29,659 nt of DNA from a virus. A program made the translations under genes and the position numbers. Every line of letters starts with the position of its first letter. The first letter of the stretch is position 1. Positions 5,854-27,064 of this stretch are shown here, piece by piece. The notes beneath the pieces were generated by a model that was not told the DNA's origin, searched no databases, and worked only from the letters and a program-made list of their open reading frames with translations. The stretch is taken from positions 1 through 29,659 of the IMG/VR virus record IMGVR_UViG_640427134_000001; one strand, given 5' to 3'.

Positions 5854-5900
5854 TATACACATTATCGCAATGATTGTGCTACGCCCTGTTGGCGTGTTCC
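5854..5900 (-). promoter_or_regulatory. Putative phage late promoter, copy 5 (LPD1 gene)
   Basis: GGAACACGCC (5900-5891), 24 nt, GATAAT (5866-5861, preceded by TGC), A at 5854. Confidence 0.7.
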
Positions 5901-5955
5901 TAGAGACAAAAAAAAGGACCACGCTAACTGGTAACGCAACCCTTACTCACAAAGA

Positions 5956-11124: not shown

Positions 11125-13848
11125 TTATAAGTCTGATGATTCTTTATCAACTGCGCTTAATACAACATCTAACGCTTGAGTAAATAGCGGGTTGTGTTCG
11201 TCTTTTTCGCCAATAACTGTCAGCCTATCAAGGTCAATATCATCGGTACTTAAAGAGCCATCGATGATTGAATTTAGGTAATCTGTATCATCTTGGCTAT
11301 AGGCTGTTTCTGTTTGCTGCATCGCATGTCCTTGTTCAATATCACTGACTTCTTGTTCATCACTTCCAATATCCTCAGGGGCATTTACTGTGGCTACATT
11401 TTGTTCATTTAAGCTCCCGATATCTTGATTCAACCAGTTATTGGCCTTTTCAATATATTCAGGTAAGTCATTGGTATATTGATAATCGACAACTTCACCA
11501 TCTTGTGACCATTCAATGGTAAAGTCATTAGGTGATTCCTTTGCCGACTCGCCATCATAGTTTTTGAACTTGCCTTCAATTTCAACTCTTCGGTTAGATA
11601 CTTCTTTAACCGCTTGGAATACGCCTAATCCGGCATGTCTTGGCTCGATAAAAGTTGTAAAACCGAAAGATTCAGCAAGTCCATTGAGCTTTTCTAAACC
11701 TTTTTCCGTCAACACTTTTCTAGCTTCCCAGCGCTCAGCATTCGCCATAGCGTCCTCGTCATTATTGGCATAACGTGCATAAGGGTTTTCAGGGGAATAG
11801 CTGCTATCTTTGATCTCATTAAATACTGACTCAAATTTAGGATACTTGTTTAAAAGTTCAGCTTTACTGTCAAACACTTTAGGCATGCCGTAACCGCTAC
11901 CACTGTCACTATAAGCTCGTGACTGAGCATTGTTAGCATATACAGCAAAACCACCATCATCTTTACCATAAACAAGCCAGTGACTATCATTTTTACTATA
12001 CATATAGATCTTGATGGCCTGGCCTGCCTCTGTATTGCCTTGATATTCATAACGCATGCCATTTGAAGCAAATTTGATATTAGGTTCAGGCAAGTCATTC
12101 GCATTGATCGCTGCCTCCTCATTAGCTTTTTTCGAGCTACTAACAAGAACATCTAAGTAAGTCTCATAGTTACTTAGGTTCACAGTTTTATAGAATCCCG
12201 ATGGCTGTATACGCAATACAACCTCATTCTCAGCTATGTTTAACCCAAGGTTTTCAAAGGCAACAGCTCGGTTATCCTTATAACCAGTTCCCACAATTTT
12301 TGAGGGTCTTATTTGCTTGTTTACCAATTTGTGTAGCTGCGATACCGACTCTTTTAGATCATCTTGTAGGCTTTGAACTGAAAAACCAGACTCTTCATTG
12401 GAGTTTATTTTTTCTTGGTACTCACCTTCTGATATAAACGACACTCCCATTGAGGTAAGTTGTGTTTTTAAACTCTCAATATTCTGTTTAAGCTTGGTTT
12501 GTGCGGCAGTATCTAAAATCCCCAAGCCTCTTTGTACGCCATCTAGCAGTCTTTTTTTGTATCTAGGCTCAATATCCAGGCTATCTATATCAATGCTGTT
12601 AACCTGAATATTCATATCTTGCGAGCTATCATCATTTGTTGTTTCTGTCGTATCTTTGTCTGCCTTGCCTTTATTCGCTTTCATAGCAGCGTCAATCTGA
12701 TCTTTTAAGCTGGCAATATCGTTATCTAGCTGCTCAATAGTTTGTTTCTTCTTCTCAATATTGCTTTGAGCTTCATTGATATCAGCGTCACGCTTAGCTT
12801 TGCGCTCTTGAGCACGTTTAAAGTTTTTACTGTTTTTGCTGGCAAGCAACATCATTTGACGTGCAAGAGTTGGAATTTTGACGTCCTGGCCGTTAATCGG
12901 TGACAAAATAGCGGTTACGTCGCGTTTGTTTAACAGCCATTTCCAGCTAACCATCATATCGCCTGCCAGCAATTTGCTAGGCGTGCTGTCAGGGTTGTGA
13001 AACCAAATAGATAGTTTTTGGCCGTCCGATAAATCAAACACAAAAGCAACGTTTACCACGCCACCGCGTTTAAATGGCTTGGTTTGAGTGACATTGGTTA
13101 CAGATAGGGTTTCATTTGAGGCCTGGCTCATTGCTCTAAATAAGCGATCTTTGAGCATTGGCAAGCGGTTAACCGTTTCCATGATTGAGTCGAACTCGGC
13201 TTCTTCTGCCTCTAAGTCAATCAACGCTTGCTGTAAGTCAAACTCTTGTGTCAGCTCTTTAAACGTGTCAGCTCGGATCATATCTGTGTATAGATTGGTT
13301 AAGCTGCCACCATGGCTTGATAGGGTTAGGTTATCCCATTGAACATCATTAAAAGCGGCTCGTGTCGCTTCTTCTTGTAGCTCTTTTGATGTGATGATTG
13401 GTAGGTAGTGCTTATCTTGTGAGGGGTTATCTAGTAGCTTAGAGATAGCATCAATTGACCATGCTTGGTCATCTGTCATGTGATCAAACTGCATACCTTC
13501 GGCATAACCTACAAGTACGCCATAATCTGCGCCCAAACAATCAAATTGAGTGGTTGCTAGTGATAATGCATGATCTTCATCTAAAGCGCCGCCAATCGCC
13601 ACTGAGTCAACGTAATGACCGCCGTTTTCAAATAAGTTCACAACGTGCCAGCTATCATCATTACTGCCAGCTTTTGCATCAAAGCCCAATCCGTCAAAAC
13701 CAGTCTCGTCAGCGATCAAGGCCAGCATATCTCGGTACTCACCTTCGATAAAGCCAGTCTCATAACGGCTGTAACGCGTCTGTTCGTTACCGTATCGATC
13801 TTCTGTTAATTGGTTGGCGTGCGCTGTGCCTGTTTTAATGTAAGACAT
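11125..13848 (-). CDS. darA: DarA (defence against restriction A)-like internal head protein
   Basis: DarA N-domain KPFKRGGVVNVAFVFDLSDGQKLSIWFHNPDSTPSKL...SWKWLLNKRDVT, a coiled coil, and a DarA C-domain-like DTDYLNSIIDG...LFTQAL. Confidence 0.88.
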   Translation of the reverse strand: MSYIKTGTAHANQLTEDRYGNEQTRYSRYETGFIEGEYRDMLALIADETGFDGLGFDAKAGSNDDSWHVVNLFENGGHYVDSVAIGGALDEDHALSLATTQFDCLGADYGVLVGYAEGMQFDHMTDDQAWSIDAISKLLDNPSQDKHYLPIITSKELQEEATRAAFNDVQWDNLTLSSHGGSLTNLYTDMIRADTFKELTQEFDLQQALIDLEAEEAEFDSIMETVNRLPMLKDRLFRAMSQASNETLSVTNVTQTKPFKRGGVVNVAFVFDLSDGQKLSIWFHNPDSTPSKLLAGDMMVSWKWLLNKRDVTAILSPINGQDVKIPTLARQMMLLASKNSKNFKRAQERKAKRDADINEAQSNIEKKKQTIEQLDNDIASLKDQIDAAMKANKGKADKDTTETTNDDSSQDMNIQVNSIDIDSLDIEPRYKKRLLDGVQRGLGILDTAAQTKLKQNIESLKTQLTSMGVSFISEGEYQEKINSNEESGFSVQSLQDDLKESVSQLHKLVNKQIRPSKIVGTGYKDNRAVAFENLGLNIAENEVVLRIQPSGFYKTVNLSNYETYLDVLVSSSKKANEEAAINANDLPEPNIKFASNGMRYEYQGNTEAGQAIKIYMYSKNDSHWLVYGKDDGGFAVYANNAQSRAYSDSGSGYGMPKVFDSKAELLNKYPKFESVFNEIKDSSYSPENPYARYANNDEDAMANAERWEARKVLTEKGLEKLNGLAESFGFTTFIEPRHAGLGVFQAVKEVSNRRVEIEGKFKNYDGESAKESPNDFTIEWSQDGEVVDYQYTNDLPEYIEKANNWLNQDIGSLNEQNVATVNAPEDIGSDEQEVSDIEQGHAMQQTETAYSQDDTDYLNSIIDGSLSTDDIDLDRLTVIGEKDEHNPLFTQALDVVLSAVDKESSDL

Positions 13849-13855
13849 GATAAAA

Positions 13856-13924
13856 AACCCTATTACGATAAAGATAATAGGGTTATTTTGTCATTAATAT
13901 AAGGCTGTGTTTTAGGGGTGTTCC
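13856..13924 (-). promoter_or_regulatory. Putative late promoter copy 4 with RBS-masking hairpin (darA operon)
   Basis: GGAACACCCC (13924-13915), 24 nt, CAAAAT (13890-13885, preceded by TGA), A at 13878; perfect 10-bp IR at 13856-13865/13875-13884. Confidence 0.78.
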
Positions 13925-13931
13925 CAGGCAG

Positions 13932-14216
13932 CTATTCGTCTATTTCCGGCGCACCGATTCGACTGATCCATACCTCGTTAACGCCCTTGTTGAAAACGTC
14001 CTCTACCGTTAGATAGTCTGGGTTGTTAATGTCACGGCCTAGCATGCCAGGGTAGCTTAAATTGGTTACCTTAAACGGCTTGTCGGTACGACCGCGCTTA
14101 AAGCGACCAATAATTAGCCCATTTTGAGTTGAGGGAACCTGGGTTGATTCCGTCTTGTCGTTTACGTCGCCTCGCTGCACGCCAACAGCGGTTGAAATAA
14201 TTTTAGTTTCAATCAT
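13932..14216 (-). CDS. 94-aa protein resembling the N-terminal domain of contractile tail sheath proteins
   Basis: GVQ...LIIGRFKRGRTDKPFKVT..SY..MLG...YLTVEDVFNKGVNEVWISRI follows the sheath N-terminal pattern; AGGA RBS. Confidence 0.7.
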   Translation of the reverse strand: MIETKIISTAVGVQRGDVNDKTESTQVPSTQNGLIIGRFKRGRTDKPFKVTNLSYPGMLGRDINNPDYLTVEDVFNKGVNEVWISRIGAPEIDE

Positions 14217-14225
14217 GATTAATCC

Positions 14226-14894
14226 TTAGCTTGAGAATGATAAAGGTCTTAGTTTTTCAAAAGTAACCGGTATTTCTACCAATTCGCTTCTGCTACTTGC
14301 TGATAATTCAATGCTTGCTGACTTAACACCAACTATCCATGATTCCTGAACAGCAATTCTTCTGGGATCATTGGGGTTTAACAATGCCACCGTTAGTTTA
14401 AACGCATAGCTTTTTGTTTCGTTCATTGTTCCATCGTTGTTAAACGCAAGCCTGCGACAAGCTTTGTATGATTTAGAGATATCTCCTTTGGCTGTTTCGA
14501 TAAAGGTGATGTCCATTTCACTGCTTGTTTGTTGGGTCAAGTAGTTCGCCTGGTAAGATCCAGCTTGATAGCTTTCAGACTCATTAGAACCTAGCGACAA
14601 TTCAGCATTGGTGGCAAGGTAGCTAAGCGTTTGATCCTTAAACCAGGGTATATCCCCTTTATGGCCAAATATGTTTTCTATTTTTACCTTGTAAACTGCC
14701 TTGATCAACGCCTTATGAGCTTTAACCCTTCCATAAATGCGGGCGTACTCTTCTAGTAGGTTTTTGCTTACAGTATTATCAACTGCGCTACCCGTTTTTT
14801 GAGCTGCATTACTGACTAAGTTGAAGGCTGTTTCTCTAAAGTCATTGCCAGCTGTAAAGTCATGGTCGATTAACTCGCTAACTAAATCCAGCAT
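14226..14894 (-). CDS. P1 Tub-like tail tube initiator / tube-fold protein
   Basis: ESYQAGS...T....EMDITFIET...AFNNDGT.NE.KSYAFKL...IPVTF resembles recalled P1 Tub; TAATG-coupled to the portal gene. Confidence 0.62.
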   Translation of the reverse strand: MLDLVSELIDHDFTAGNDFRETAFNLVSNAAQKTGSAVDNTVSKNLLEEYARIYGRVKAHKALIKAVYKVKIENIFGHKGDIPWFKDQTLSYLATNAELSLGSNESESYQAGSYQANYLTQQTSSEMDITFIETAKGDISKSYKACRRLAFNNDGTMNETKSYAFKLTVALLNPNDPRRIAVQESWIVGVKSASIELSASSRSELVEIPVTFEKLRPLSFSS

Positions 14895-16522
14895 TACTTG
14901 TCATCCCAAAACATATCATCATCCACATCATCATCTACTGGCATTTCCTCACCCGGCATCGGCTCTTCACCTGGCATGCCAGCTTCTTGGCCCATTAGCC
15001 CGCCTTGCTCATCTGCCGGTCTGGCTGATAATCCTGCTGCCACACGCTCTGCTAGATTAATATCGGCCCCAAACACATCCTCTAGCATTAATTGGTTGGT
15101 TTCCTTGTCAAAGCCTAGTTCACGAAGGCCGGCAAGCGATTGGGCCACAATAGCGAGCGTATTAGCTCTATTTTGCTTGTTATTAAGCATTTCAGTAGCG
15201 GCCGCTGATTGATCGCTATAAAAATCAAATTGCCAGGGGTAGTCTTGAGGCTCGAACCATTCGTTATACTTAATACCCCAGTGTATGCTCATTAAGTGGT
15301 TAAATGCGTCAATACAAGCTTGTCTGATTAGCATTGACCGTCTCATAACTTGCGCTGATGTATGGAAGGCTGCACCGTCACCCAGGCCACCTGCCAGCAT
15401 ATCGGCCCAGCCAATTAGTGATAGATCCATACCCAGGCCACCGGCTAAGCGCCGTAAGTTGATCATTAATATGCCTTCATTCAGTGGTGCTACGCGTTGC
15501 GCTAGATCGCCTACTGACTGAATCACTTGCTTTTCGCCATACTGCGGTAGTACGTGGTATTTTGTACCGTACAAAGCCTCACCGCCGTCAAACGCATCTT
15601 GAATTTGATCGCGGTAGCTCTTTAACATTTTAGTTAACGAGCTGATATAGCCTTGTCTTTGTTTGGCTGGCATGCCTTCCATATTAAGCGTTAAAAAAGC
15701 CTGTTTTACGCTGTCTGCAATTTGCTGGTTGTTAAGGCCAGCACGACTAATGGTTACGTCTCTCCACGCGTCCTCAATAGCATATAAGAATGAGCCGCCT
15801 ACCTCTGACGGTAGGATTGGGTTATCGGATCTTAGGTCATAAACAAGCGTTGTTCTATCCTGCCATACGTCTAAGGCCATTTGCGGTATGTTCTCAATAC
15901 GAGGCATTTTAACTCTAAGCATTTGTTCTAATGACAACTTGGCAATAGTACGCTGCTTATCTTCATCTTCTAAGGCGTGAAAGCCAATAGTGCGCCCTGC
16001 TTGCTCAAACGGCATGATTAATGAAGGCTGGGTAAAGCGGTTATTCATTAAATCAAGCACGCCTTTGCGCTCGTCTGTATAGATACGAGCATAACTATCA
16101 CCATAAGCAATAGCCTGGCGTGCCAGCGAGAATACATGACGATTGATTAGGGGTGCGATATGTTTAGCTTCACGCTCAACCTTTTTTCTAAGCTCTTTGG
16201 CTCTGCGGCCGCCTTCTCTGATGTGATCGTTTGGTGTGATAAAAATCATATCACCGGTTGACTCATGGCCGCCTAAAGCTGCGGTAACATGTAAGCTTAA
16301 CGCCTCTGAAACTTGAGGGTCTGCCTGCATGATTTCCCACATCGTATAAATCTGTCTGCGAGTACGCGGCTGCTTTGCCTTGTGATGAAAGGTGCCAAGT
16401 TCAAACGGATTGGTAGCCTCATAACTACGATCCACATCGTCAATAGTAGGTATTTTCTCTGATATTCGAGCTTGCCTATCATCAATTAAAAAGCTTGCTA
16501 GACGTTTTCTAAAATTCATCAT
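14894..16522 (-). CDS. prt: Portal protein (P1 Prt-like)
   Basis: 542 aa; R.QIY...E.M...P.VSEALSLHVTAAL, AYGDSYARIY, PSLIMPFE..G...GF and LGMDLSLIGWADMLAGGLGDG resemble the recalled P1 portal; acidic tail. Confidence 0.8.
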   Translation of the reverse strand: MMNFRKRLASFLIDDRQARISEKIPTIDDVDRSYEATNPFELGTFHHKAKQPRTRRQIYTMWEIMQADPQVSEALSLHVTAALGGHESTGDMIFITPNDHIREGGRRAKELRKKVEREAKHIAPLINRHVFSLARQAIAYGDSYARIYTDERKGVLDLMNNRFTQPSLIMPFEQAGRTIGFHALEDEDKQRTIAKLSLEQMLRVKMPRIENIPQMALDVWQDRTTLVYDLRSDNPILPSEVGGSFLYAIEDAWRDVTISRAGLNNQQIADSVKQAFLTLNMEGMPAKQRQGYISSLTKMLKSYRDQIQDAFDGGEALYGTKYHVLPQYGEKQVIQSVGDLAQRVAPLNEGILMINLRRLAGGLGMDLSLIGWADMLAGGLGDGAAFHTSAQVMRRSMLIRQACIDAFNHLMSIHWGIKYNEWFEPQDYPWQFDFYSDQSAAATEMLNNKQNRANTLAIVAQSLAGLRELGFDKETNQLMLEDVFGADINLAERVAAGLSARPADEQGGLMGQEAGMPGEEPMPGEEMPVDDDVDDDMFWDDK

Positions 16523-16530
16523 TTGTGCCC

Positions 16531-17202
16531 TTATCTTGGCCCAGAAGTTGAGCTGCTACCACTTCTAACACCGCCGTGAACGTGGCCTTTTAGTGATATA
16601 CCGCCACCAACTACGTCATTACTTGCGGACATAGTGCCTTGAGTCTTGATATTGCCTTTGGCCACCATGGTTCCATCGGCGGTAATGCCGCCACTGGCTG
16701 ATATATTACTGGCAGTAGATACATTGCCCTTAACAGACATAGTGCCAGTTGTGCTTTGGCTGCCGGTATGGTTAATCTTTGCTTTAACATTCATGTTATC
16801 GGCCGTTATAGACACTGTACTGGCATCAATGGTCACGCTTTGGGCCTGCATTTGTATCAGGTCTTTTGCTGTCAAAGTAATACGAGCTCTTGCCAGCAAT
16901 TCAATGTTTTGCTGTCTTATGCGGCGAACGTCAACTACCGCTTGGCCACCGCCATGACGACGGTAAAAAGCGATCACCGGCATTGAGGTATCGCCTTGCT
17001 CAAAAAAAACCCATACGTCGGCACCTGGTAGCAATTCACGCTCGGTATCAAGATCATCATCACCGATTGGATAAGCCAGCATAGCGGTAATACCCTCCGG
17101 CACCCCATCGGTTAACCCGGCTATTGCTACATTGGCCGTTCTATTAGCCTTGTCATAAGACACCAGCTTGGCTGGGTGAAAATATGGTGATATTACGCTC
17201 AT
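16531..17202 (-). CDS. Baseplate spike (gpV/gp5-like)
   Basis: OB-fold motif (GADVWVFFEQGDTSMPVI), Gly/Ser/Thr beta-helix repeats and the apex metal motif SLKGHVHGGV. Confidence 0.9.
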   Translation of the reverse strand: MSVISPYFHPAKLVSYDKANRTANVAIAGLTDGVPEGITAMLAYPIGDDDLDTERELLPGADVWVFFEQGDTSMPVIAFYRRHGGGQAVVDVRRIRQQNIELLARARITLTAKDLIQMQAQSVTIDASTVSITADNMNVKAKINHTGSQSTTGTMSVKGNVSTASNISASGGITADGTMVAKGNIKTQGTMSASNDVVGGGISLKGHVHGGVRSGSSSTSGPR

Positions 17203-18107
17203 TTCTCGCCCTCTAATTGTGCAAGCCAGGCTTGAGTGGCCATTATCGGCCTGCCACCTAAAGCTCCAGTATCGTAACGATGCGCTGCGGTTAAAACCAC
17301 CAGGCTATCTTGGCCATAACCGTCATCAATAGTTACCACACTACCAGCGTTCAACCTATCATCAAGCTGTCTTACCATCTTGGCCTTAGTCACTAAGATA
17401 CGACGCAAGTTTTGCAATTCCCTGGCATCTGCTCTTGGGTAATAGCCTACTTGCTTGTTGTTAAGTGGTGAACCTAAGATATCCGATCCGTTATCATCAA
17501 CTGATAAAAAGTTAGTGTTACCATGCGATAAAACATGGGGGTTATCTATCCACTGTAAAGCACTACGATCGTATATAAGCGACTCACCTTTGAACAAATC
17601 ATTAATGCGAGTAACAGATATTTCGCCGTCGCTATACATAGTTACAGCTGCTTCTTTTTGTAGCGATATTGCTATTCTTTTTGTCGGTAACTGGCCCTTT
17701 AAGCATATAAACTGATTTAACTTGATATCGCTTTTTAATCGTATCTTTGCACCCAGGACCCGATAAACCTCGTTAAAGCTTGTATCGTTTAGTGACGTGG
17801 CCCTACTAGCTACGCTTAGCAGCGGCTCGCAACCCGATAACACAGCAATAATAATTAATCCGCCCACACGCTTTCCTGCCTTAACCGCCTGCATATTTAT
17901 ATGCTGTGATTTGACGATTGTTAAGCTGATGCCGTCGCCAACTATCAGCTTATCGCCAATCTTTAATAGTTCTTTTAGCTCGTCGGTAGCTTTAACTACC
18001 ATTTCAAGAGACACGGGGACCGGTACCAAGTCAGTACGATAAATCGCACTAATAAGGTCACCGCCGCCAATAGTTGAGCCGTCCGATAAAACTATCTTCA
18101 CTTCCAC
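17199..18107 (-). CDS. Putative baseplate hub protein
   Basis: 302 aa, coupled directly upstream of the spike, with a hub-like C-terminus (LNAGSVV...VVLTAAH). Confidence 0.55.
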   Translation of the reverse strand: MEVKIVLSDGSTIGGGDLISAIYRTDLVPVPVSLEMVVKATDELKELLKIGDKLIVGDGISLTIVKSQHINMQAVKAGKRVGGLIIIAVLSGCEPLLSVASRATSLNDTSFNEVYRVLGAKIRLKSDIKLNQFICLKGQLPTKRIAISLQKEAAVTMYSDGEISVTRINDLFKGESLIYDRSALQWIDNPHVLSHGNTNFLSVDDNGSDILGSPLNNKQVGYYPRADARELQNLRRILVTKAKMVRQLDDRLNAGSVVTIDDGYGQDSLVVLTAAHRYDTGALGGRPIMATQAWLAQLEGEK

Positions 18108-18616
18108 GAACCGTTATAGTTAATTTCAATACTTTGCAGGCTATTAAACGTACTATTGCCTTGCTTAGCTTCAAGATCAGCCGTGCTATCAACGCTAAAA
18201 GGGTGTGTATTAAACGCCTCCCTTTTCATTTCTAGCATAGCTTCTCTGTGGTTTTGGTAGGCCTCACTTGAGCTCATGCCAACCGGCTGAACCCCTAAGT
18301 TTTGAGCGCCTTCCATGCGTTTAGCTTGCATAAGGTCGCACTTAGCCACAACAACAGGCCTAATAATGCTCCATTCGTCGTTGTAGATATTTGTTGTGCT
18401 ATCAAGAAGTAACGTATAGGTATCATCTTTATCATCAAGATCATACGCACGTAACGCACCGCCCCATGCCAGGTAATCACGGCAAACATCAACAATAATA
18501 CGCTCTACATCACTTTCAAGAAGTGAGTAGCCGGTCGTATATAACTCTTCATAAAATCGAGTGGCGACACTCTTAATATCGCCCTCGATGTAACTGTCTT
18601 GTCTGCTAGTAAACAT
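18098..18616 (-). CDS. Virion morphogenesis protein, possibly a head-tail adaptor
   Basis: Helical 172-aa protein tightly packed in the structural operon; function inferred from size and position only. Confidence 0.45.
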   Translation of the reverse strand: MFTSRQDSYIEGDIKSVATRFYEELYTTGYSLLESDVERIIVDVCRDYLAWGGALRAYDLDDKDDTYTLLLDSTTNIYNDEWSIIRPVVVAKCDLMQAKRMEGAQNLGVQPVGMSSSEAYQNHREAMLEMKREAFNTHPFSVDSTADLEAKQGNSTFNSLQSIEINYNGSWK

Positions 18617-18627
18617 ACAGGCTTACC

Positions 18628-19248
18628 TTAACCAAATGTAGTGGTGCCACCAATGGTAGAAACTGGTTTATAGCCACCAAATGCGTTTAATGCGTTGGTC
18701 AATAGGCCGGCAAGTTTGTCAGCAGTACCGGCGCCAATATCACCAGTTTGGCCAAAGTAGTTATAACGGCAAGTTACTTGAACCTGTAAGATCTGGCTGC
18801 GGCTTGCTGAATCAATCTCACCACCACCATCAGGGAAGGTGATCGCACAGTCTTTAAGCAAGTATTCAGTCTTACCTTTAATCTCATTACCATCGGTAGC
18901 GAACCCATCATAAACACGCACCAGTGGGATCTCGCCATTGTGTTTAATAACGATATCTTCTGCAAACTTAGCGATGGTGCCTGATTCAGTTTCAATCATG
19001 GTCCACTGGCCTTCAAAGTTTGTTTTAGGCGGTGCGGTAACGTGGGCCTGGAAGCCGTAAGCATAATCTGCGTCGGCTGGCTCGTGGTTGGTTATCATTG
19101 GGCGCTGGAAGTTTTGAATAAGGATATAAAGGTTTTCGTAACCTTCTGGCTTACAAATTGCGTTACAAGCAAGCATAGCTGAGCCCAAAGACTTGGCCAG
19201 CTCGTGCATTTGAGAATAGGCTTGCAAGGTAGGTGAAGAACTTTTCAT
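18628..19248 (-). CDS. Tail tube protein (P1 BplB-like)
   Basis: GYENLYILIQNFQRP...IETESG.I..F...LKDCAI...RYNYF resembles recalled P1 BplB. ATG 19248 (AGGG RBS) is preferred over TTG 19266. Confidence 0.7.
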   Translation of the reverse strand: MKSSSPTLQAYSQMHELAKSLGSAMLACNAICKPEGYENLYILIQNFQRPMITNHEPADADYAYGFQAHVTAPPKTNFEGQWTMIETESGTIAKFAEDIVIKHNGEIPLVRVYDGFATDGNEIKGKTEYLLKDCAITFPDGGGEIDSASRSQILQVQVTCRYNYFGQTGDIGAGTADKLAGLLTNALNAFGGYKPVSTIGGTTTFG

Positions 19249-19250
19249 AG

Positions 19251-19323
19251 AAATAACCCTAATCAATAATAAGTGATAGGGATATTTTGGGGTATAAAGG
19301 TATTGAGCTTTTAGGGGTGTTCC
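19251..19323 (-). promoter_or_regulatory. Putative late promoter copy 3 with imperfect RBS-masking hairpin (tube-portal operon)
   Basis: GGAACACCCC (19323-19314), 24 nt, CAAAAT (19289-19284), A at 19277; imperfect IR at 19251-19265/19274-19287. Confidence 0.75.
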
Positions 19324-19368
19324 TGAAAATTTTTTAGTGCCTCTGGTTCAAGAATCAAAACAATTTAA

Positions 19369-19377
19369 TGATATAAT
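19369..19377 (+). promoter_or_regulatory. Extended -10 sigma70 promoter of the DsbD_2 moron
   Basis: Perfect TG-A-TATAAT about 100 nt upstream of the TTG start. Confidence 0.6.
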
Positions 19378-19480
19378 CCTTGATTTCTTCCTCCTCACTT
19401 TAGAATACGATATCGATACTAATACTGTGAGTGATTAAAAAATCAAATATTATGGGTCAAATTGACTACAAGGATTAAAA

Positions 19481-20305
19481 TTGACAACTCCTTTATTATT
19501 AGCAGCATTTGCTATGGGCTTTTTTGGTTCACCACATTGTTTGGGTATGTGTGGTGGCTTGGTTACCGCTTTTGGCCTATCTATGCAAGAAGTAAGCCCA
19601 CTAAAGAAAAGAGGGCTTATTGCTACTTATCACTTTGGTCGCCTGGTTAGTTACTCAATTCTAGGGGTTATTGCAGGTATTGTGGGCACCACGGTCTTAG
19701 CCCCACTATTAATGGGTAACTCAACCCCGCGTATTTTACTGGGTCTGGTATTGGTATTCATTGGCCTATCTATGCTGGGCATGCCTTTTTTAAATAAGCT
19801 TGAAAAAGTGGGCATGGGCGTTTGGAAAAAACTCTCCCCTTTACGTCAAAAAGTTTTCCCAATAACTACCTTCCCAAGGGCTTTAGCAGCGGGTTTATTA
19901 TGGGGCTTTTTACCTTGTGGCTTGGTCTATGGCGCTCTACTGATGGCCGTTGTCGGCAATAACATCGCAACTGGGGCTTTATTAATGTTTGTCTTTGGCT
20001 TAGGCACGGTTCCCATGTTGGTCGCTACCCAAGAGACTGTGGGCTGGCTACACAAACAAATTGGCCGCTATAAATTACGTCAATTAAATGGCGTCGTAAT
20101 GATTTTGTCAGGACTGGCAGTAATTGCCCTGCCTATAGCCATGCATAGCATGGGTGGACACGGCGATCACGGCTCGCATGGCGCACATCAAATGCATGAT
20201 GATTCAGCGATGATTTCTACTACGCACGACCACTCTCAAGATATGCACGGTTCTAATACTGAAGAGCATCATAACCATGATCACTCACATGCTAACCATC
20301 AGTAA
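19481..20305 (+). CDS. DsbD_2 / TauE-SafE-like metal-handling membrane protein with His-rich tail (moron)
   Basis: GSPHCLGMCGG, YHFGRLVSY, LWGFLPCGLVY and FGLGTVP motifs, 6-7 TM helices, His-rich C-terminus; AGGA RBS at 19471-19474. Confidence 0.9.
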   Translation: MTTPLLLAAFAMGFFGSPHCLGMCGGLVTAFGLSMQEVSPLKKRGLIATYHFGRLVSYSILGVIAGIVGTTVLAPLLMGNSTPRILLGLVLVFIGLSMLGMPFLNKLEKVGMGVWKKLSPLRQKVFPITTFPRALAAGLLWGFLPCGLVYGALLMAVVGNNIATGALLMFVFGLGTVPMLVATQETVGWLHKQIGRYKLRQLNGVVMILSGLAVIALPIAMHSMGGHGDHGSHGAHQMHDDSAMISTTHDHSQDMHGSNTEEHHNHDHSHANHQ

Positions 20306-20316
20306 TTGAAAACGCA

Positions 20317-20952
20317 TTAATATGGAGATAGATAAGCCACATGATAGCGATAGCCGCCAGCAGCAACAGCAACATCAACCTGGCTGAAATCAACAGAGAC
20401 AGCAATTTCAGGTACGATATTCCAGGGAACCAGCTTTTCTAAGACGGGGGCAATATCTGAAATATCACTATTGTTATCATTAAGCGTTAATGCAATACGC
20501 ACACGGCTAGTTAAAAACGAGCCTGGCATTTGCTTTTCGCTTACTGCTACTGGGTAAGCATTTGCCAGCTCTTTTGAGTGCCAAAGCCTCAATACCCTGT
20601 TATTTCCAGGAAACAGCATGTTTAGTACGAACTGCAAAAAGTCTAGGCCACGGCCGCTGGCCATACCCTGCCAGGCAGATAAGATCATAGCCATAATATC
20701 AGTTGATAGCCCTTCTGTATCTTGTCTCAAGATCACCAGTCCGTTAAGCTTACTAAATCGCTCAATAACAACTGGGCTGCTTTCAAGCCATGGCGCACCA
20801 TAGCTATTCATATCAACCAAGCCTTCAAGCTCGTATTCCTCAATCAGCTTAGTAAAAACACCTGCAATGGCTTCATCAAGCTCGTTTGCCTTATGGCTCT
20901 CTTGTACCGTTCTAGTAAAGTCGGCAGCCTGTAATTTGCTTGTTCTACCCAT
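20317..20952 (-). CDS. Baseplate wedge protein (P1 gp16-like)
   Basis: Immediately downstream of the BplA-like gene; contains RGLDFLQFVL...LWHS...YP...FLTSRVRI. Confidence 0.6.
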   Translation of the reverse strand: MGRTSKLQAADFTRTVQESHKANELDEAIAGVFTKLIEEYELEGLVDMNSYGAPWLESSPVVIERFSKLNGLVILRQDTEGLSTDIMAMILSAWQGMASGRGLDFLQFVLNMLFPGNNRVLRLWHSKELANAYPVAVSEKQMPGSFLTSRVRIALTLNDNNSDISDIAPVLEKLVPWNIVPEIAVSVDFSQVDVAVAAGGYRYHVAYLSPY

Positions 20953-20953
20953 T

Positions 20954-22426
20954 TTACAAAGTCCAAATAGCTGTGCCAGTGTCGGCCGTTCTTGTCATGT
21001 CGATAGTAATGCTATCCTCTGTGATATAAGCCCATTCATGCGGTTTAATGGGGTTTTTAGCAGTATCTTCTGTTAAAACTGAAAAGTCACTAATACGGTC
21101 CTGGAAGGCTGTAATATCACTTCTAATCTTAATGGCAATTTCTTGTTTATTAAAACCGTCTGGGCTGTGGTAGCTTGATGATAGCGAGCCTTTACCAAAG
21201 TTTTCTAGCAGCAACTCTTTGATTTGAGTCTTTACTGAATCCATATCATGCACCGAGGCCAAACGGCCAGCAATGGTAATCTTATAAGGTCTTTCTTTAA
21301 CCTCTTTGATATTAACCTTACCATCTAGCAGCGTATCAGCATTGGCTACCAGCTTCTTAATATCTTCTACCAGCGCCTTTTGCTCAATCTTGTTTTTAGC
21401 TACCACGGTTAAAAATAGATGGTTGATTGCGTCCAATGAGGCCCCGTAGTGCTTCTCATTGATCGTCTCATTCCAAATGGCCATGTAGTCAAAACGCTGC
21501 ATAAAGTGCTTGCGTACTAAAAAGTCAAAGTTACCCATGAAAACGGCGTTATGGTCATACATTGAAGGGTAGCTGGCAAGTAGTCGCATTTGAGCCACGC
21601 TTAACGGATCTGCGCCGGCTCGAACAAGATCACCGGCTTTGAAATATAGGTTTAACTTGCTTTCCTCTGACTCGTAAATCTCACTCAAGGCCGCGCTGCT
21701 TAGGCTTGATTGGTCAACATACCCATAGCTTTGAGTGATTGCGATCTCGTAGGTATCACCGGCTTGTACTGTCACGCCGGCACGTTCGGAGTCGCCAAAA
21801 ACAATTGTTATATCTTCAAGGTTATGGCTTTGTAGTGTATAAGCCGCCTGGCCCAAACCGGCGTTCATAAACTTGGGCGTGTACTGAAAATTCATACCCA
21901 AAGTTGCGTTATAAACTGACAAACTCGATAGATAGGCGCCGTCGGTTGTTGATACGTCTAGGCGATAAAAAGACTCACTAACAGGTATGTTAACCTCAAT
22001 ATGATTAACAGTGCTTTGCTCTGCTAGAACCTTTTTGGTTTCATGGCCGTTTAGCGTTGCTGATGACATAAGACGCCATTGTCTGCCCGTACCGTCCTCA
22101 ACTAAACGGCCCTGGCTCAAACTAACCTTGCTATTCCCATTGTTCTCAATAGTTAGCATGTACTGGCAAGGCGTGGCAACTGGCAATATACCCTTGTTGA
22201 TAGCATCTGCAATGATCGTGCTTTGCTTAGACTTGATAAACGGCTCTGTAATGTTTACCTGGTTATCACGCGATAGCCATAAGACAGTTTCCACTACCGA
22301 AGTCATCATAGCTCTTACTGTGGGATCGCCAGCTCGCCAGCGTTCTGCAACTTCTGGATAGTCGTTTAAATGACTGTCTATACTTGATAGTATCTTTTTT
22401 CTTAGCTGGTTACTGGGCACTGACAT
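20954..22426 (-). CDS. Baseplate J-like wedge protein (P1 BplA-like)
   Basis: About 490 aa with EPF...STI.A.A..KG, IVFGD...G and GADPLS...R motifs. ATG 22426 has AGGA 8 nt upstream, preferred over TTG 22444. Confidence 0.72.
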   Translation of the reverse strand: MSVPSNQLRKKILSSIDSHLNDYPEVAERWRAGDPTVRAMMTSVVETVLWLSRDNQVNITEPFIKSKQSTIIADAINKGILPVATPCQYMLTIENNGNSKVSLSQGRLVEDGTGRQWRLMSSATLNGHETKKVLAEQSTVNHIEVNIPVSESFYRLDVSTTDGAYLSSLSVYNATLGMNFQYTPKFMNAGLGQAAYTLQSHNLEDITIVFGDSERAGVTVQAGDTYEIAITQSYGYVDQSSLSSAALSEIYESEESKLNLYFKAGDLVRAGADPLSVAQMRLLASYPSMYDHNAVFMGNFDFLVRKHFMQRFDYMAIWNETINEKHYGASLDAINHLFLTVVAKNKIEQKALVEDIKKLVANADTLLDGKVNIKEVKERPYKITIAGRLASVHDMDSVKTQIKELLLENFGKGSLSSSYHSPDGFNKQEIAIKIRSDITAFQDRISDFSVLTEDTAKNPIKPHEWAYITEDSITIDMTRTADTGTAIWTL

Positions 22427-22739
22427 TATAGTAATCCTGATCAATATCGGTTATTGGGTTTTCATTTAGCTGAATATCAATACCGCCAATAGATAAGATG
22501 ACGTTAATCGTATCAAATCCCACTGTTTCAATGGATATGCTTAACTGATCTTCATCTAGTGTATTTATTATCGGTATATCGGCCCTAAGCTTGCTTAAAA
22601 ACTCGTCTGCTACATCGGCGGACAACTCTTTTAGCAGCATGGCCTTGGCATCTGCGCCATAGCCTTGAGCAAAATAACCGTTAGGTGGCGTGTCCAACCA
22701 ATGAATAATCATCTGTCTAATGTGTTCGGCGGTAATCAT
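22410..22739 (-). CDS. Baseplate wedge / sheath initiator (GPW/gp25 fold, P1 gp26-like)
   Basis: HWLDTPPNGY..QGYG...L...L...FLSKLRADIP; directly upstream of the J-like gene. Confidence 0.7.
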   Translation of the reverse strand: MITAEHIRQMIIHWLDTPPNGYFAQGYGADAKAMLLKELSADVADEFLSKLRADIPIINTLDEDQLSISIETVGFDTINVILSIGGIDIQLNENPITDIDQDYYNVSAQ

Positions 22740-23176
22740 TTGATACGCACCTCGGATAATGGGGTATTGGGGTCTGGTAGTCTTATCTTAGATCTTGTCT
22801 TTTTGGCCTGGGTTATAAGCTTAGACGCATCAACAAATCTTGAGTTCTTAATGCAAACTAACAGTATATCAAGCCATACAAAAAACGATCCTAGAATGGC
22901 CATAATAATAAGCAAGCCAGCGCCGCCAATACCCCATGACTGCGATATAACCATCACGGCATAAAAACGCCATAGCAAGAACATAAGCAATATTAAAAGT
23001 GGCACGCTTAGTAATAGCGATTGACGCAAGGTTTGACCGATAGCCACGGCCAATGTATTGCTATCAATAACTTTGTTGAGTAGCTTTAATCTGCTAATGA
23101 TATCTACATACAAGTAAAACATCATAATCATTAACATACCGCTTAAAAAAAAGTCCACTATATAGGCGTTTTGCAT
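22736..23176 (-). CDS. Three-TM membrane protein, function unknown
   Basis: Three hydrophobic segments and a basic tail; AGG RBS; ATGA-coupled to the next gene. Confidence 0.65.
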   Translation of the reverse strand: MQNAYIVDFFLSGMLMIMMFYLYVDIISRLKLLNKVIDSNTLAVAIGQTLRQSLLLSVPLLILLMFLLWRFYAVMVISQSWGIGGAGLLIIMAILGSFFVWLDILLVCIKNSRFVDASKLITQAKKTRSKIRLPDPNTPLSEVRIK

Positions 23177-23185
23177 ATCACTACC

Positions 23186-23725
23186 TTATGCTGCGTTTTG
23201 CTGTTTTACTTTCTCTAATTGAGCCTCAAGATCTTGTTTTTCTTTGGTCTTAACTGTAATTACTTTATCCAGCTCTGCGGCCTCTTCCAACAGTGATTTT
23301 AACGTTTGAGCTTTGTTGGCTGGCGCTCTATTACGCTTAGTTCTTGTTACCTGGGCGCGGGCTCGCCGGGCACTAAATGCCTTTTGGCCCTGGCTAACAA
23401 GTTTTGCGATCTCGTCAACTGATGCGTTGAATGACGGCTTGTAAGAGTTATCAAAGTCACCGGTAGTTGGCTGTGTTTTGCTGTTAATATCAATACGGAA
23501 AATATCCAGCCCATCCGGCTGATCTGATTCAGGGGCTTCTCGAATATAAAGCTTTACAACCTGGCCGCCGTCTAAAGCGATATGAACAGGCCTGGCACTG
23601 GCACCAGATACCCTCGATACTCTTAAAACATCCACCACAACAACTTGCTGCCTAGCTGTTTTGGCCAAACGCTTAACAAAGTCGCTGACAAGCGATGTTT
23701 TTTCTGTGATTTCTGACAGTTTCAT
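23186..23725 (-). CDS. hdf: Hdf-like protein (DarA N-terminal-domain paralogue)
   Basis: R.SG...RPV...LDGGQVVKLYI...DIFRIDINSK..P plus a C-terminal coiled coil, as in recalled P1 Hdf. Confidence 0.7.
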   Translation of the reverse strand: MKLSEITEKTSLVSDFVKRLAKTARQQVVVVDVLRVSRVSGASARPVHIALDGGQVVKLYIREAPESDQPDGLDIFRIDINSKTQPTTGDFDNSYKPSFNASVDEIAKLVSQGQKAFSARRARAQVTRTKRNRAPANKAQTLKSLLEEAAELDKVITVKTKEKQDLEAQLEKVKQQNAA

Positions 23726-23730
23726 AAAAA

Positions 23731-23802
23731 AATAACCCCAAACAAATTAAATGATTGGGGTTATTATGACTTGCTGTTAGCTGTTATTAGTTGGGGTGTT
23801 CC
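23731..23802 (-). promoter_or_regulatory. Putative late promoter copy 2 with RBS-masking hairpin (hdf-baseplate operon)
   Basis: GGAACACCCC (23802-23793), 24 nt, CATAAT (23768-23763), A at 23756; perfect 11-bp IR at 23731-23741/23755-23765. Confidence 0.8.
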
Positions 23803-23808
23803 AACAAA

Positions 23809-24705
23809 TTACATGCCAACACTGCGGCGGTAGTGGCTTGCTTTTAGGCCGCGACGCATATTGCGTGCTTTTTGTGGGTCAATGTTATAGATATTGCGCT
23901 GTAAGCCTTTAGCAAATGACATCATACGCTTACGAACCGCTGAACCCGTGGTTGATTTTCTGCGAGCTTTTTTAAGGGCTGCTTTTTGGGCTGCACTCAA
24001 GCGAACCTTGCCAGCAATACGCTTGTTAACAACCTTGATTTTACCATCACGAACCGCTTTGACTGCTTTGTAAGTAACGTTTTTACCGCCTACTTTGCGG
24101 CGTATTTTACGGCCAACTGTTAAAGGTTTTTTGGCTGCGTCGTACATGCCTTCATCTTCTTCTTTCATCATTGCGTCATAAGTGGCTTCGTCACCGTATG
24201 CAAACACTGAAATAAAGTCGTCTAGCTCGTCATCGGCTGGCATGTTCTCTAAGATGATCTCTGATGCTGTTTCGATCGCCGCGTCTGCAATATCAACATC
24301 GCTATCAAACACATCATTAATCAAATCTTCATCAACGCCTAGAGTACTCATAGCGTCTGCGATATGGGCTGATAAGATTGTTTTTACAGTTGAGTCGATT
24401 TCGTCGTCGTCATCTTCTGGATCTTCAACAAATGACTCAAGGATTAGGCTATCCAATAACTCACTTGGTAGTAGCTCTTGGTCCTCAAAATCAACCTCTG
24501 ACATGATGCCAGCCAGCATGAAGGCTACTTGCAGTGCTGCTAAGCGCATTTGAGTGGTTGAGTGCGCGGCGATGCGCTCGTCGATCGGGTCAAAATCAAT
24601 AGATTCTGCCGCTTGTTTGGCGCTGTTAGTTGCGTCAAATTGCGCCTCTTGACGCTCTAACATGCGATCCTGGTTACGCTCGATAATATGGCTTGATACT
24701 AACAT
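23809..24705 (-). CDS. P1 gp21-like protein (acidic N-terminal part, very basic C-terminal part; possible prohead core protein)
   Basis: VRDGKIKVVNKRI...RLSAAQKAALKKARRK..TG matches the recalled P1 gp21 C-terminus; it follows the sheath gene as in P1. Confidence 0.7.
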   Translation of the reverse strand: MLVSSHIIERNQDRMLERQEAQFDATNSAKQAAESIDFDPIDERIAAHSTTQMRLAALQVAFMLAGIMSEVDFEDQELLPSELLDSLILESFVEDPEDDDDEIDSTVKTILSAHIADAMSTLGVDEDLINDVFDSDVDIADAAIETASEIILENMPADDELDDFISVFAYGDEATYDAMMKEEDEGMYDAAKKPLTVGRKIRRKVGGKNVTYKAVKAVRDGKIKVVNKRIAGKVRLSAAQKAALKKARRKSTTGSAVRKRMMSFAKGLQRNIYNIDPQKARNMRRGLKASHYRRSVGM

Positions 24706-24738
24706 TCTTTATTTCCTTTTACTGATCAATAAACTGCA

Positions 24739-26112
24739 TTACTTAGTGATTGTGGTTTCAAAGTAAACTTGTCGAGCACAACCTTCGGGGCGTTTAACAA
24801 GTCTAATATCAACTTTTTCAAACGGGTTATCTGCTCGTGGTGCCACTTCTAAGCCGTATAGCTTGCCTGATAGCTCTGCTACTGGCTGTAACAAGCCAGC
24901 TGAACTACAAGCGTTTAAGAAGCGGCGGATCTCTGCGTCTGCGTCATTGATGTAGCTAGTCATACCTTTAAGTAAGTGCTTTTTAGCAATGCTAACTACT
25001 GCGTTATCAACGTAAGTGGTAATTTCAGATGCGTTGATTAAGCGTAAAGCACTTGTTTTGCTATCGTATTGAGTAATAGCGTCACCATAAATCCAGCGAT
25101 CGCCTGCATCAAAGCGCTCATTCAATACCACGTTCACGCCAGCTGAAGCCAGTGCGTTTTGGGCCTCTTCATCAAGGCTAACGCTTGGCATGGTTTCCAT
25201 ATCACGGAAGCTAACAGGGAAGTCATAACCGGCAACAGGGCGGTTAACAGGTGGAATACCAGACGCATTGGTAAGGGCGTTACGAACAAGTAATTGGCCT
25301 AGGTAGTCACCGACACAAGGGCGCCATTTTTTGCGTGATAGTACGCTTGCGCTGTTTGAAGGGCGTGATACGTTCGGGTTCCAAAAAACCCAAAAACGGT
25401 GGTCTTTAATGTTGATAGATTCAGCAAGGGCCGCCGCTGCTACCCAGTCGTTGATCTTACCCAGATCCAGTAATACGTGACAGTTAAGCTTATCCATTAC
25501 CTTTGTTGTGGCTTCGATAACCGGCATGTCATCGGTTGAACAAACAACAATGTAACGTGGGCGTTCACGCATATCAATTAAAGTGCGTGTGATCTGCTCG
25601 GGTGTTGGCTCTACAACCTTGCTGGCTGGCACGTCAATGACAATTTCAGCCTTGCGGTATGTACCGTGGTCTTTTAGGGCCTTAACAGCTTTCAGCGCAT
25701 CTACAACCTGAGCCGCGTTATCTTTAGAATAGGTCGTTTCGACTTGTTCAAAGAAGTCATTGCTGCTATCTAATGCACCATGAAAATCAAGCTTTTGCGT
25801 GATGTATGAGAAGTCGTTTGGATAGTTGTTTTCAAGCTCGTCTGCACCGCCGCCAGTGTATAAACGGCCTTGCAGTGAAGTGATCATACTATCATCAACT
25901 TTATCAGCAAATGTAATGTCAAATAACAGGTTATTTAACGGGTCAGCTGCGTTAGTTGGTGTCTTATCATCAACTACTTGAATCTTGGCCACGACGTTGT
26001 GGTCAAAGCCGTATTCAGTAACAAGCTCGATAGTTGCTAATGCCTTACTTTCCTTGCTATTGGTAATAGTAACGGAAGTAGGCAGGATATTAATAAACAG
26101 TTGAGTTGCCAT
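24739..26112 (-). CDS. Contractile tail sheath protein (P1 gp22-like), apparently lacking the usual N-terminal domain
   Basis: PVAGYDFP, LASAGVNVV, IYGDAIT, SALRLIN and C-terminal VKRPEGCARQV sheath motifs. Confidence 0.8.
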   Translation of the reverse strand: MATQLFINILPTSVTITNSKESKALATIELVTEYGFDHNVVAKIQVVDDKTPTNAADPLNNLLFDITFADKVDDSMITSLQGRLYTGGGADELENNYPNDFSYITQKLDFHGALDSSNDFFEQVETTYSKDNAAQVVDALKAVKALKDHGTYRKAEIVIDVPASKVVEPTPEQITRTLIDMRERPRYIVVCSTDDMPVIEATTKVMDKLNCHVLLDLGKINDWVAAAALAESINIKDHRFWVFWNPNVSRPSNSASVLSRKKWRPCVGDYLGQLLVRNALTNASGIPPVNRPVAGYDFPVSFRDMETMPSVSLDEEAQNALASAGVNVVLNERFDAGDRWIYGDAITQYDSKTSALRLINASEITTYVDNAVVSIAKKHLLKGMTSYINDADAEIRRFLNACSSAGLLQPVAELSGKLYGLEVAPRADNPFEKVDIRLVKRPEGCARQVYFETTITK

Positions 26113-26117
26113 AAAAA

Positions 26118-26183
26118 ATGCCTATATTGGTGAATATAGGCATAGTATAGAGTTGGGCTAACAGTATTGTTTAGGGGTGTTCC
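26118..26183 (-). promoter_or_regulatory. Putative late promoter copy 1 with RBS-masking hairpin (sheath operon)
   Basis: GGAACACCCC (26183-26174), 24 nt, TATACT (26149-26144), A at 26137; perfect 11-bp IR at 26118-26128/26133-26143. Confidence 0.8.
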
Positions 26184-26197
26184 TAGTAATAAGGCCT

Positions 26198-27064
26198 CTA
26201 CCTCATTTGTTGTACCTCACCGCGCGGGCAGGTTCCCCAAACTGGAGGTACGATATTTTCATAGCCTTCCCAACCTTCGGGTCGAGTTGGGATTTTAAGC
26301 ACACACCACTCAGATAGATCTTGATTGAACTCACCGGCAAAGTTGAATGTGTTATTCATGTTTTCAACATTTGACACGTTCCAACCGCTGATATCTTGGT
26401 TAAAAGAACTTGCCTGCGTAAACATGCTTTTCATGTTGGTTACGTTTGATACGTCCCAGCCGCTAATATCTGTATTGAAGGTATTAGCAATAGCAAACAT
26501 GCTGTCCATATTAATTGCTGAGCTTGTTTTCCAGTTTTCAATACCTACAATATCTTGGGTTTGAGCATAGAAAAACGTTTTCTCAAAGTTAGTTACGTTT
26601 GATACATCCCAGTGAGATAGGTTTTGACCAATATAAGTCGATTTGTACTCTTCTTCATTGAAAAAAGCGGAGCTTAAATCAGTTACATTTGACGTGGCCG
26701 CAATATAAATATTATCTACTGCGTCCTCTTTAGTGTAAACGCTCAAATACGCTGTTGGATCGCCGTCCGAGAATACATGAGTCTCACCCTCTGGTACGCC
26801 AAAGTTATAGACAATACCGGTATCAGTGGCTTTATACCAACCATGACCGGGATAGTCTTTATCTAGGCCTACGTCGTTCATAGCGGGCGGCTCAACCTCA
26901 ACGTCTGGCATGTTCATAAGGATTTCGACCTTATCTTCCAAGCCTCTTAAATTGGCTTTGATTTGATCAAGTTGGCCAAATACTTCCTTCATACCCTGAC
27001 CAAAAATACCCGCCAAACCCTCTGTAAATTTCACCATTTCATCATGTGATACTAATTTTTTCAT
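26198..27064 (-). CDS. DUF285 / BspA-type (PARCEL) repeat protein with N-terminal coiled coil
   Basis: Roughly 25-aa repeats LSHWDVSNVTNFEKTF, ISGWDVSNVTNMKSMF, ISGWNVSNVENMNNTF; GGAGG RBS. Confidence 0.88.
   Translation of the reverse strand: MKKLVSHDEMVKFTEGLAGIFGQGMKEVFGQLDQIKANLRGLEDKVEILMNMPDVEVEPPAMNDVGLDKDYPGHGWYKATDTGIVYNFGVPEGETHVFSDGDPTAYLSVYTKEDAVDNIYIAATSNVTDLSSAFFNEEEYKSTYIGQNLSHWDVSNVTNFEKTFFYAQTQDIVGIENWKTSSAINMDSMFAIANTFNTDISGWDVSNVTNMKSMFTQASSFNQDISGWNVSNVENMNNTFNFAGEFNQDLSEWCVLKIPTRPEGWEGYENIVPPVWGTCPRGEVQQMR

Follow-up and report, generated by a model that had tools for sequence, protein, structure and literature searches.

Hairpins predicted to insulate tandem late operons at the promoters of a Psychrobacter prophage

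The 29,659-nt window analysed here (positions 1 to 29,659 of IMG/VR record IMGVR_UViG_640427134_000001, the first 29.7 kb of a 111-kb provirus record from a Psychrobacter prophage) carries its virion genes entirely on the minus strand, and raises the question of how the operons of a long co-directional late array without spare intergenic space can be expressed independently of one another. The late promoters of this array overlap inverted repeats whose 3' arms reach the ribosome-binding site of the first gene, and the original prediction, made from the letters of the window, took them for RNA hairpins that form only in read-through transcripts and hold the virion genes in a translational lock. 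Our analysis leads to a modified answer, which we regard as probable with a good deal of room for doubt: the hairpins would serve as dual insulators that combine a mask over the Shine-Dalgarno (SD) sequence with a facultative terminator, both bypassed by RNA started at the promoter itself.

The promoters are marked by a box, GGAACACCCC, which occurs six times in the 111-kb record, on the minus strand every time, and is joined by a seventh, variant box (GGAACACGCC) at 5900. In relatives, which were retrieved by portal protein homology, the box lies on the coding strand only wherever the portal is at least 60% identical; the opposite strand has no copy in the prophage's own genome or in relatives, except for single stray matches in two distant loci. 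With each site named after the first base of its box, the window contains the following features, all on the minus strand.

13915..13924, minus strand: late-promoter box GGAACACCCC, 7 nt after the stop codon of gene 13932-14216
13885..13890, minus strand: -10 hexamer CAAAAT, 24 nt from the box, with TGA in front of it (extended -10); predicted +1 at A13878
13856..13884, minus strand: hairpin with 5' arm AACCCTATTA (13884-13875) and 3' arm TAATAGGGTT (13865-13856), the latter with an AGGG SD
13857-13852, minus strand: run of six T after the stem; ATG at 13848
19314..19323, minus strand: late-promoter box GGAACACCCC ahead of the tail-tube operon
19289-19284, minus strand: -10 hexamer CAAAAT; predicted +1 at A19277
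19255..19283, minus strand: imperfect hairpin with 5' arm ATCCCTATCA (19283-19274) and 3' arm TGATTAGGGTT (19265-19255); no real T-run
23793..23802, minus strand: late-promoter box GGAACACCCC, 6 nt after the stop codon of gene 23809-24705
23768-23763, minus strand: -10 hexamer CATAAT, overlapped by the 5' arm; predicted +1 at A23756
23731..23765, minus strand: hairpin with 5' arm AATAACCCCAA (23765-23755) and 3' arm TTGGGGTTATT (23741-23731), the latter with a GGGG SD
23730-23726, minus strand: T-run after the stem; ATG at 23725 (Hdf-like gene 23186-23725)
26174..26183, minus strand: late-promoter box GGAACACCCC, 14 nt after the stop codon of gene 26198-27064
26149-26144, minus strand: -10 hexamer TATACT; predicted +1 at A26137
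26118..26143, minus strand: hairpin with 5' arm ATGCCTATATT (26143-26133) and 3' arm AATATAGGCAT (26128-26118), the latter with an AGGC SD
26118-26113, minus strand: T-run after the stem; ATG at 26112 (sheath gene)
5900-5891, minus strand: variant box GGAACACGCC, with -10 hexamer GATAAT at 5866-5861, GAGG SD at 5835-5832 and ATG at 5824
5872-5868 with 5839-5835, minus strand: loose pairing of CATTG with CAATG beside the GAGG, leaving the SD core mostly free

The order of elements is the same at each site: GGAACACCCC, 24 nt, the -10 hexamer, then directly the 5' arm, which begins 0-2 nt past the -10 or overlaps it, and finally the 3' arm with an AGG(G) SD 7-10 nt before the ATG. For comparison we assembled 62 distinct box-to-ATG leaders from this genome and 40-odd related loci, grouped by downstream gene. 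The spacing between box and hexamer is exactly 24 nt (23 at one site), and the second and sixth bases of the hexamer are A and T, respectively, in all 52 distinct sites, partly owing to register choice; the hexamer, often after TGn, has the consensus CAnAAT or TATACT. The seventh base after it is A in 48 of these 52 sites, with T just before that A in 36, and the aligned leaders show no further conserved element in the interval between box and hexamer. From this arrangement we infer that the hexamer is the -10 and the conserved A the +1, which would place the box at about -46 to -37. Because the seventh base after the -10 is so regularly A, the start is expected inside the 5' arm, and at the three perfect repeats it would fall on A13878, A23756 and A26137, in agreement with the original placement. 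A reading as a promoter for an extracytoplasmic function (ECF) sigma factor, with GGAAC as the -35 and a -10 located 16-17 nt downstream, was rejected, as there is no conservation at that -10 position.

The position of the start also bears on the possibility that the stem is an attenuator within the leader, in which case transcription would begin upstream of the whole stem, all late RNA would carry the hairpin and its U-run, and a phage antiterminator acting in the manner of lambda Q would be needed. A stem and T-run located in the leader of each operon would suit such a scheme, but the sole conserved -10-like element abuts or overlaps the 5' arm, the interval between it and the box is otherwise unconserved, and in several relatives the -10 itself lies within the 5' arm. 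Moreover, highly expressed genes such as those for sheath and tube would then have a permanently masked SD, and we consider an attenuator of this kind highly unlikely.

An independent repeat search recovered the three perfect 10-11 bp inverted repeats on which the original prediction was built (13856-65/13875-84, 23731-41/23755-65 and 26118-28/26133-43), confirming that observation. They account for three of the approximately nine spaced inverted repeats of at least 10 nt in the 29.6-kb window and all lie within roughly 105 nt of late-promoter leader, a stretch for which position alone would predict about 0.03. On the minus strand their 3' arms supply AGGG, GGGG or AGGC 7-10 nt ahead of the ATG codons at 13848, 23725 and 26112. 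The imperfect repeat claimed at 19251-87 is real, pairing CCCTA-TCA with TGA-T-TAGGG around one bulge, but its fold is weak; at the looser one claimed for 5834-73 the CATTG/CAATG pairing is present, but the SD is not masked.

In order to compare read-through RNA with RNA from the dedicated promoter, we folded long leaders, taken from the upstream stop codon, and short leaders, cut at the predicted +1 (the seventh base after the -10). The long leaders of sites 13924, 23802 and 26183 fold with -22.7, -24.3 and -20.2 kcal/mol (z-scores of -3.9, -3.4 and -2.3), whereas their short counterparts are unstructured, with -0.9 to -2.2 kcal/mol and z-scores of about 0; the long-leader z-score at 19323 is -1.2. 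The probability that the SD is unpaired in the long RNA is 0.00-0.04 at the three sites and 0.19 at 19323, and at 5900 it barely shifts (0.26 long versus 0.34 short). Across the 62 distinct sites the median is 0.04 for long and 0.43 for short RNA, the short value being the higher in 61 of 62, and cognate upstream halves mask the SD better than swapped ones (0.03 versus 0.19). The folds thus predict an SD that is paired in the long RNA and open in the short one; since part of each stem comes from the -10 or the bases immediately past it, RNA beginning some 7 nt downstream of the -10 would be unable to form it. The idea of silent read-through RNA and own-promoter RNA that lacks the 5' arm is in this way supported by predicted folds, with predicted starts, and fails at the 5834-73 site.

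A complementarity of this kind could in principle arise without any function in RNA, if the 5' arm were simply a discriminator and start sequence (AACCCTA), the 3' arm an SD (TAGGG) and their pairing a by-product. The core AACCCTAT that is common to most sites fits this idea, as does the fair pairing with the SD that shuffled C-rich upstream halves still achieve. However, the complementarity runs 4-7 nt past the SD core with both sides changing together, arms without the common core (GCCTATACTG, CCGTATCT and CCTTG) still pair with their own SD region, and neither the z-scores of -3.4 to -3.9 for long leaders nor the share of the window's spaced repeats that falls in these leaders is accounted for, making a by-product quite improbable.

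The relatives provide a further view of the pairing. In Psychrobacter and Moraxella relatives the design is kept while the arms have changed, with compensatory changes and new registers. Two base pairs of the stem exchange both partners among 17 tail-tube orthologues: at 14-42, 7 sequences have GC and 6 have AU, and at 17-39, 8 have CG and 5 have UA. The covariation score was reached by only 1 of 500 shuffles, and slid registers pair far worse. Other clades have new arms in a different register, and these still connect the SD with the promoter region: CCGTATCT/AGGTACGG, which retains a U-G wobble, GCCTATACTG/CAGTATAGGC, where the -10 itself is the 5' arm, and CCTTG/CAAGG, where the arm lies upstream of the -10. 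A single consensus structure for the orthologues of sites 13924 and 26183 was tried and rejected, as the arm register varies from clade to clade. In more distant relatives that have a GGAAC-type box, the stem still lies directly after the -10. In the tail-tube orthologue leaders L066, L027 and L026 (Acinetobacter/Moraxellaceae) the box is of the GGAA(C/T) type and the stem begins at the -10, and the 3' arm covers the AUG itself instead of the SD, for example ATGACTAAA/TTTAGTCAT-G. The statement that arm sequences differ between sites is borne out only in part: most arms, when distinct sites are compared, have the common core AACCCTAT...ATAGGGTT.

That partly shared half-site, forming a palindrome over the start of most late promoters, might also be read as the DNA operator of a dimeric regulator at the +1, such as a lysogen repressor of the late promoters. 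Loop lengths of 4-24 nt and G-U pairs on the sense strand argue for an RNA structure rather than a protein operator: half-sites spaced by 4 to 24 nt would have to be accommodated, they vary between sites and clades, the conserved G-U wobbles pair on the sense RNA strand only, and the position of the repeat follows the SD and ATG instead of keeping a fixed distance from the -10. We regard an operator as the least probable of the explanations considered.

Besides masking, the stems have the appearance of terminators at three sites. Sites 13924, 23802 and 26183 each have 6-7 T behind the stem. Ahead of the ATG of internal genes in the same operons, T-runs never exceed three, and these genes have stronger SDs and weak local folding. 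A terminator scan called 26143-26118 and 13884-13856 terminator-like, and site 23802 combines an 11-bp stem and T7 but with a 13-nt loop. A stable stem with a U-tract, the feature of intrinsic terminators, is thus present at these three sites and lacking at 19323 and 5900. The original prediction had noted three boxes within about 15 nt of the upstream stop codon, which our measurements of 7, 6 and 14 nt (13924, 23802 and 26183, respectively) bear out, and because of these distances no other terminator fits there. Judged by sequence, the stems at 13924, 23802 and 26183 very probably terminate upstream transcription, and termination would therefore be part of the function at the three T-run sites. 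A T-run of at least 5 follows the stem at 1 of 14 sites with a separate upstream GC-rich terminator, versus 21 of 47 without one (Fisher p = 0.011, a value that is indicative only, as the sites are phylogenetically related).

These observations would also be expected if the hairpins were ordinary terminators of the upstream operon and nothing more, squeezed between -10 and ATG with the SD placed in the 3' arm for lack of room and masking never selected; T-runs specific to these leaders, the cramped upstream stops and the tendency of T-runs to be missing where a separate upstream terminator exists all agree with that view. What speaks against it are the many orthologous sites holding a stable SD-containing stem without a T-run, whether another terminator precedes the box (L022, L032, L055 and site 36566 of the prophage itself) or none exists and the upstream stop is 5-6 nt away (L048, L013, L046 and L050). 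Loops of 14-24 nt in several clades are a poor terminator shape, and in some Acinetobacter relatives it is the AUG that is paired rather than the SD. We therefore consider termination as the sole function unlikely, if less so than the other alternatives. Since the stem persists without a T-run in both situations, SD masking appears to be the common denominator and termination an add-on. The original prediction had opposed masking to termination, and here the two appear to coexist: the masking stem is retained without a T-run in relatives, and three of the five window stems also have the form of textbook intrinsic terminators.

Several sites also have terminator-like elements elsewhere. A separate stem with a T-run lies directly upstream of the box at three late promoters (about 36566-36610, about 44283-44340 and, in the window, 5901-5945), the clearest such stem being AACCGCC...GGCGGTT followed by T6; a T8 run precedes the variant box at 5900. 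Site 36566 has a downstream stem without a T-run, and at 44283 an upstream terminator and a downstream T-run are both present. In L023 (about 20024-20055) and at G000:C1 36566 the box itself forms half of a hairpin, CACCCC...GGGGTG, which in L023 is followed by a T-run, so that a terminator overlaps the activator box.

On the strength of the sequences, their geometry, the predicted folds and the conservation with compensatory change, we propose the dual-insulator mechanism as follows, with the start sites, termination and the effect on translation inferred. Each late operon would have its own activator-dependent promoter, composed of the box GGAACACCCC, 24 nt and a sigma-70-type -10, and this promoter would form part of the 5' half of a hairpin, with the SD of the operon's first gene located in the 3' half. 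Polymerase arriving from the upstream operon would transcribe both arms, allowing the hairpin to form; where 5-8 U follow the stem (13924, 23802, 26183 and, further on, 44283), intrinsic termination would occur just before the start codon, and in any RNA passing the terminator the SD would be paired, probably leaving the untranslated first gene exposed to Rho polarity. RNA from the operon's own promoter, starting about 7 nt after the -10 at the conserved A, would keep only 1-5 nt of the 5' arm and would thus escape termination and present an open SD in a short, unstructured, A/U-rich leader. The net effect would be that tandem co-directional late operons are insulated from one another and from stray upstream transcription, with the output of each operon set by its own promoter. 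This changes the systematic lock of the original prediction: because the incoming RNA at the three tight junctions is itself late, the purpose is more likely insulation and independent dosing than the timing of early versus late expression.

Several points weigh against this mechanism. The SD of site 5900 stays unmasked, the prophage's own copy of site 19323 is borderline (z-score -1.2), and even the short RNA of 44283 has its SD covered, by a small CCUU/AAGG stem. The +1 is deduced from the -10 position and the conserved A, and the 5' arm consensus AACCCTAT, common to most sites, may be conserved in part for the promoter (discriminator and start) and not for pairing. As the stems are A/U-rich beside the U-run, their strength as terminators is uncertain, and the pair counts are drawn from related sequences. 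The shuffle control on direct pairing between SD and upstream sequence is weak as well (0.80 observed versus 0.55 shuffled), since GGG finds partners in C-rich upstream sequence in any case; reliance was placed instead on the long-versus-short folds, the swapped halves and the fold z-scores.

Comparable logic is known from phage T4, where genes e, soc, 49 and I-TevI use a hairpin to sequester the SD or AUG on longer transcripts and have a nested late promoter (PMC3014915). As in these T4 genes, the predicted stem pairs the SD on upstream RNA and the operon's own promoter lies within or over the 5' strand, as far as sequence geometry and predicted starts can tell. Unlike in T4, whose late promoter is TATAAATA read by gp55/gp33, the promoter here consists of an upstream box and a sigma-70-type -10 (GGAACACCCC-N24-CAnAAT/TATACT), many stems carry a U-run and should also terminate, and the phage is temperate with a host in the Moraxellaceae. 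T4 has the device at few genes, separating early from late, whereas here it stands at most late operons and the incoming RNA is mostly late. In fold-back inhibition of IS10/Tn10, external read-through RNA pairs a segment preceding the start with the ribosome-binding site, and own-promoter RNA is without that segment (Davis, Simons and Kleckner 1985, as cited in PMC13181058). The prophage design, as predicted, resembles this in that sequence upstream of its own start pairs with the ribosome-binding site only in externally started RNA; IS10, however, is a single-gene transposon whose constitutive promoter is weak, and in the known case the device is neither combined with an intrinsic terminator nor repeated along an operon array. 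The resemblance to T4 and IS10 is one of mechanism and not of homology. Like intrinsic terminators, three window sites have a 10-11 bp stem followed by 6-7 U, but unlike plain ones the terminator here lies downstream of the next promoter's -10, would be bypassed by that promoter's RNA, and has a 3' arm that doubles as SD. The novelty lies in how regularly a temperate phage lineage employs the device, at most of its late operons, and in its combination with a terminator that the operon's own promoter would bypass.

Although the original prediction had spoken of a P1-like phage, the prophage is related to P1 only distantly. Both have scattered late operons, each with an activator-dependent promoter without a -35. 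The annotated late promoters of P1 (NC_005856) are Lpa-dependent and contain, 4 nt ahead of the -10, a 9-bp element at -22, a layout absent from this prophage, in which the box GGAACACCCC ends 24 nt before the -10. A tblastn search with P1 Lpa against the 111-kb record detected no homologue (best E = 6.6), a remote homologue still being possible. We folded the 11 annotated late-promoter leaders of P1 and observed the same design clearly at two of them, LPsit and LPdar, and less clearly at LP23 and LPpac. At LPsit (L120:46570-46640) CTCGTAGAATC, which contains the -10, pairs with GATTCTACGAG beside a GAGG SD, with -21.2 kcal/mol and a z-score of -4.6 for the long leader and -0.9 kcal/mol for the short one; at LPdar (L120:31177-31265) a CCUCCU/AGGAGG stem lies just after the -10. 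Cronobacter phage JK004 (L122:140-255) keeps the LPsit stem through a compensatory change from G-C to A-U, with TAGAAT becoming TAAAAT and ATTCTA becoming ATTTTA. The design occurs among relatives in Psychrobacter, Moraxella and Faucicola, as a variant among those in Acinetobacter, and at P1 LPsit and LPdar. Tentatively, and at rather less than even chances, we suggest that a self-bypassing terminator with a lock on the ribosome-binding site may serve the whole P1-related myophage group, P1 among them, as a general and portable insulator, and would then be more than a peculiarity of one prophage. Full-text literature searches, which did not extend to the P1 genome paper, returned no description of the hairpin design for temperate phages or P1; the paper on Acinetobacter phage ABMM1 makes no mention of promoters.

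Such an insulator would explain how the array is expressed independently in so little space, with one 30-nt element serving as terminator, translational lock, promoter start region and ribosome-binding site, and as a compact natural insulator it would be usable in synthetic operon design. With the same architecture at P1 LPsit and LPdar, a classical Escherichia coli system is available in which the idea can be tested directly. For annotation of this phage group, box, N24, -10 and stem taken together would mark an operon start and the true start codon. Should the design hold for the whole group, it could be the main way in which these temperate phages silence scattered late operons against lysogenic or moron-gene transcription, and each operon's promoter could set virion-protein stoichiometry.

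The genes of the window were assigned by PHROG matches. An Rfam search of the window matched no family. The listed genes are the following.

9304-11115, minus strand: protein with a short DdrA-like match (PHROG)
11125-13848, minus strand: 907-aa gene with PHROG matches that include the family 'released from the phage upon host infection'
14894-16522, minus strand: portal (PHROG match)
18628-19266 as listed, minus strand: tail tube (PHROG match)
20954-22444, minus strand: baseplate protein (PHROG match)
23186-23725, minus strand: Hdf-like protein (PHROG match)
24739-26112, minus strand: tail sheath (PHROG match)

The tail-tube open reading frame (ORF) as listed starts with a TTG at 19266; judging by the alignment of orthologues and by where the SD lies, the likely start is the ATG at 19248 (18628-19248). 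Homologues of the portal occur in Psychrobacter, Moraxella, Faucicola and Acinetobacter, the nearest genome locus being in Psychrobacter sanguinis. A near-identical prophage is present in Psychrobacter sanguinis CCUG 59771 (locus L011), with 96% identity in the portal. A megablast search of 7 kb against a phage collection gave no match, and tblastn of the sheath protein against phages returned two distant matches only, Acinetobacter phage ABMM1 (29% identity) and one Xanthomonas phage. The stretch is present in 20 sequencing runs, in each case as assembled contigs. In four RNA-library runs contigs, which show neither starts nor ends of RNA, span the promoter sites, their source being either DNA or read-through RNA.

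The gene at 19481-20305 (274 aa, without a PHROG match) is the sole plus-strand gene in the late array and resembles an insert. Contigs in three runs connect 19299 to 20327 via 36 different letters that include the late-promoter box, and this direct junction indicates relatives without the gene. Just upstream of the 13924 promoter, a 94-aa ORF (13932-14216) matches only the N-terminal 60-90 residues of sheath-type PHROG families, and the complete sheath gene (24739-26112) lies 10 kb away from it.

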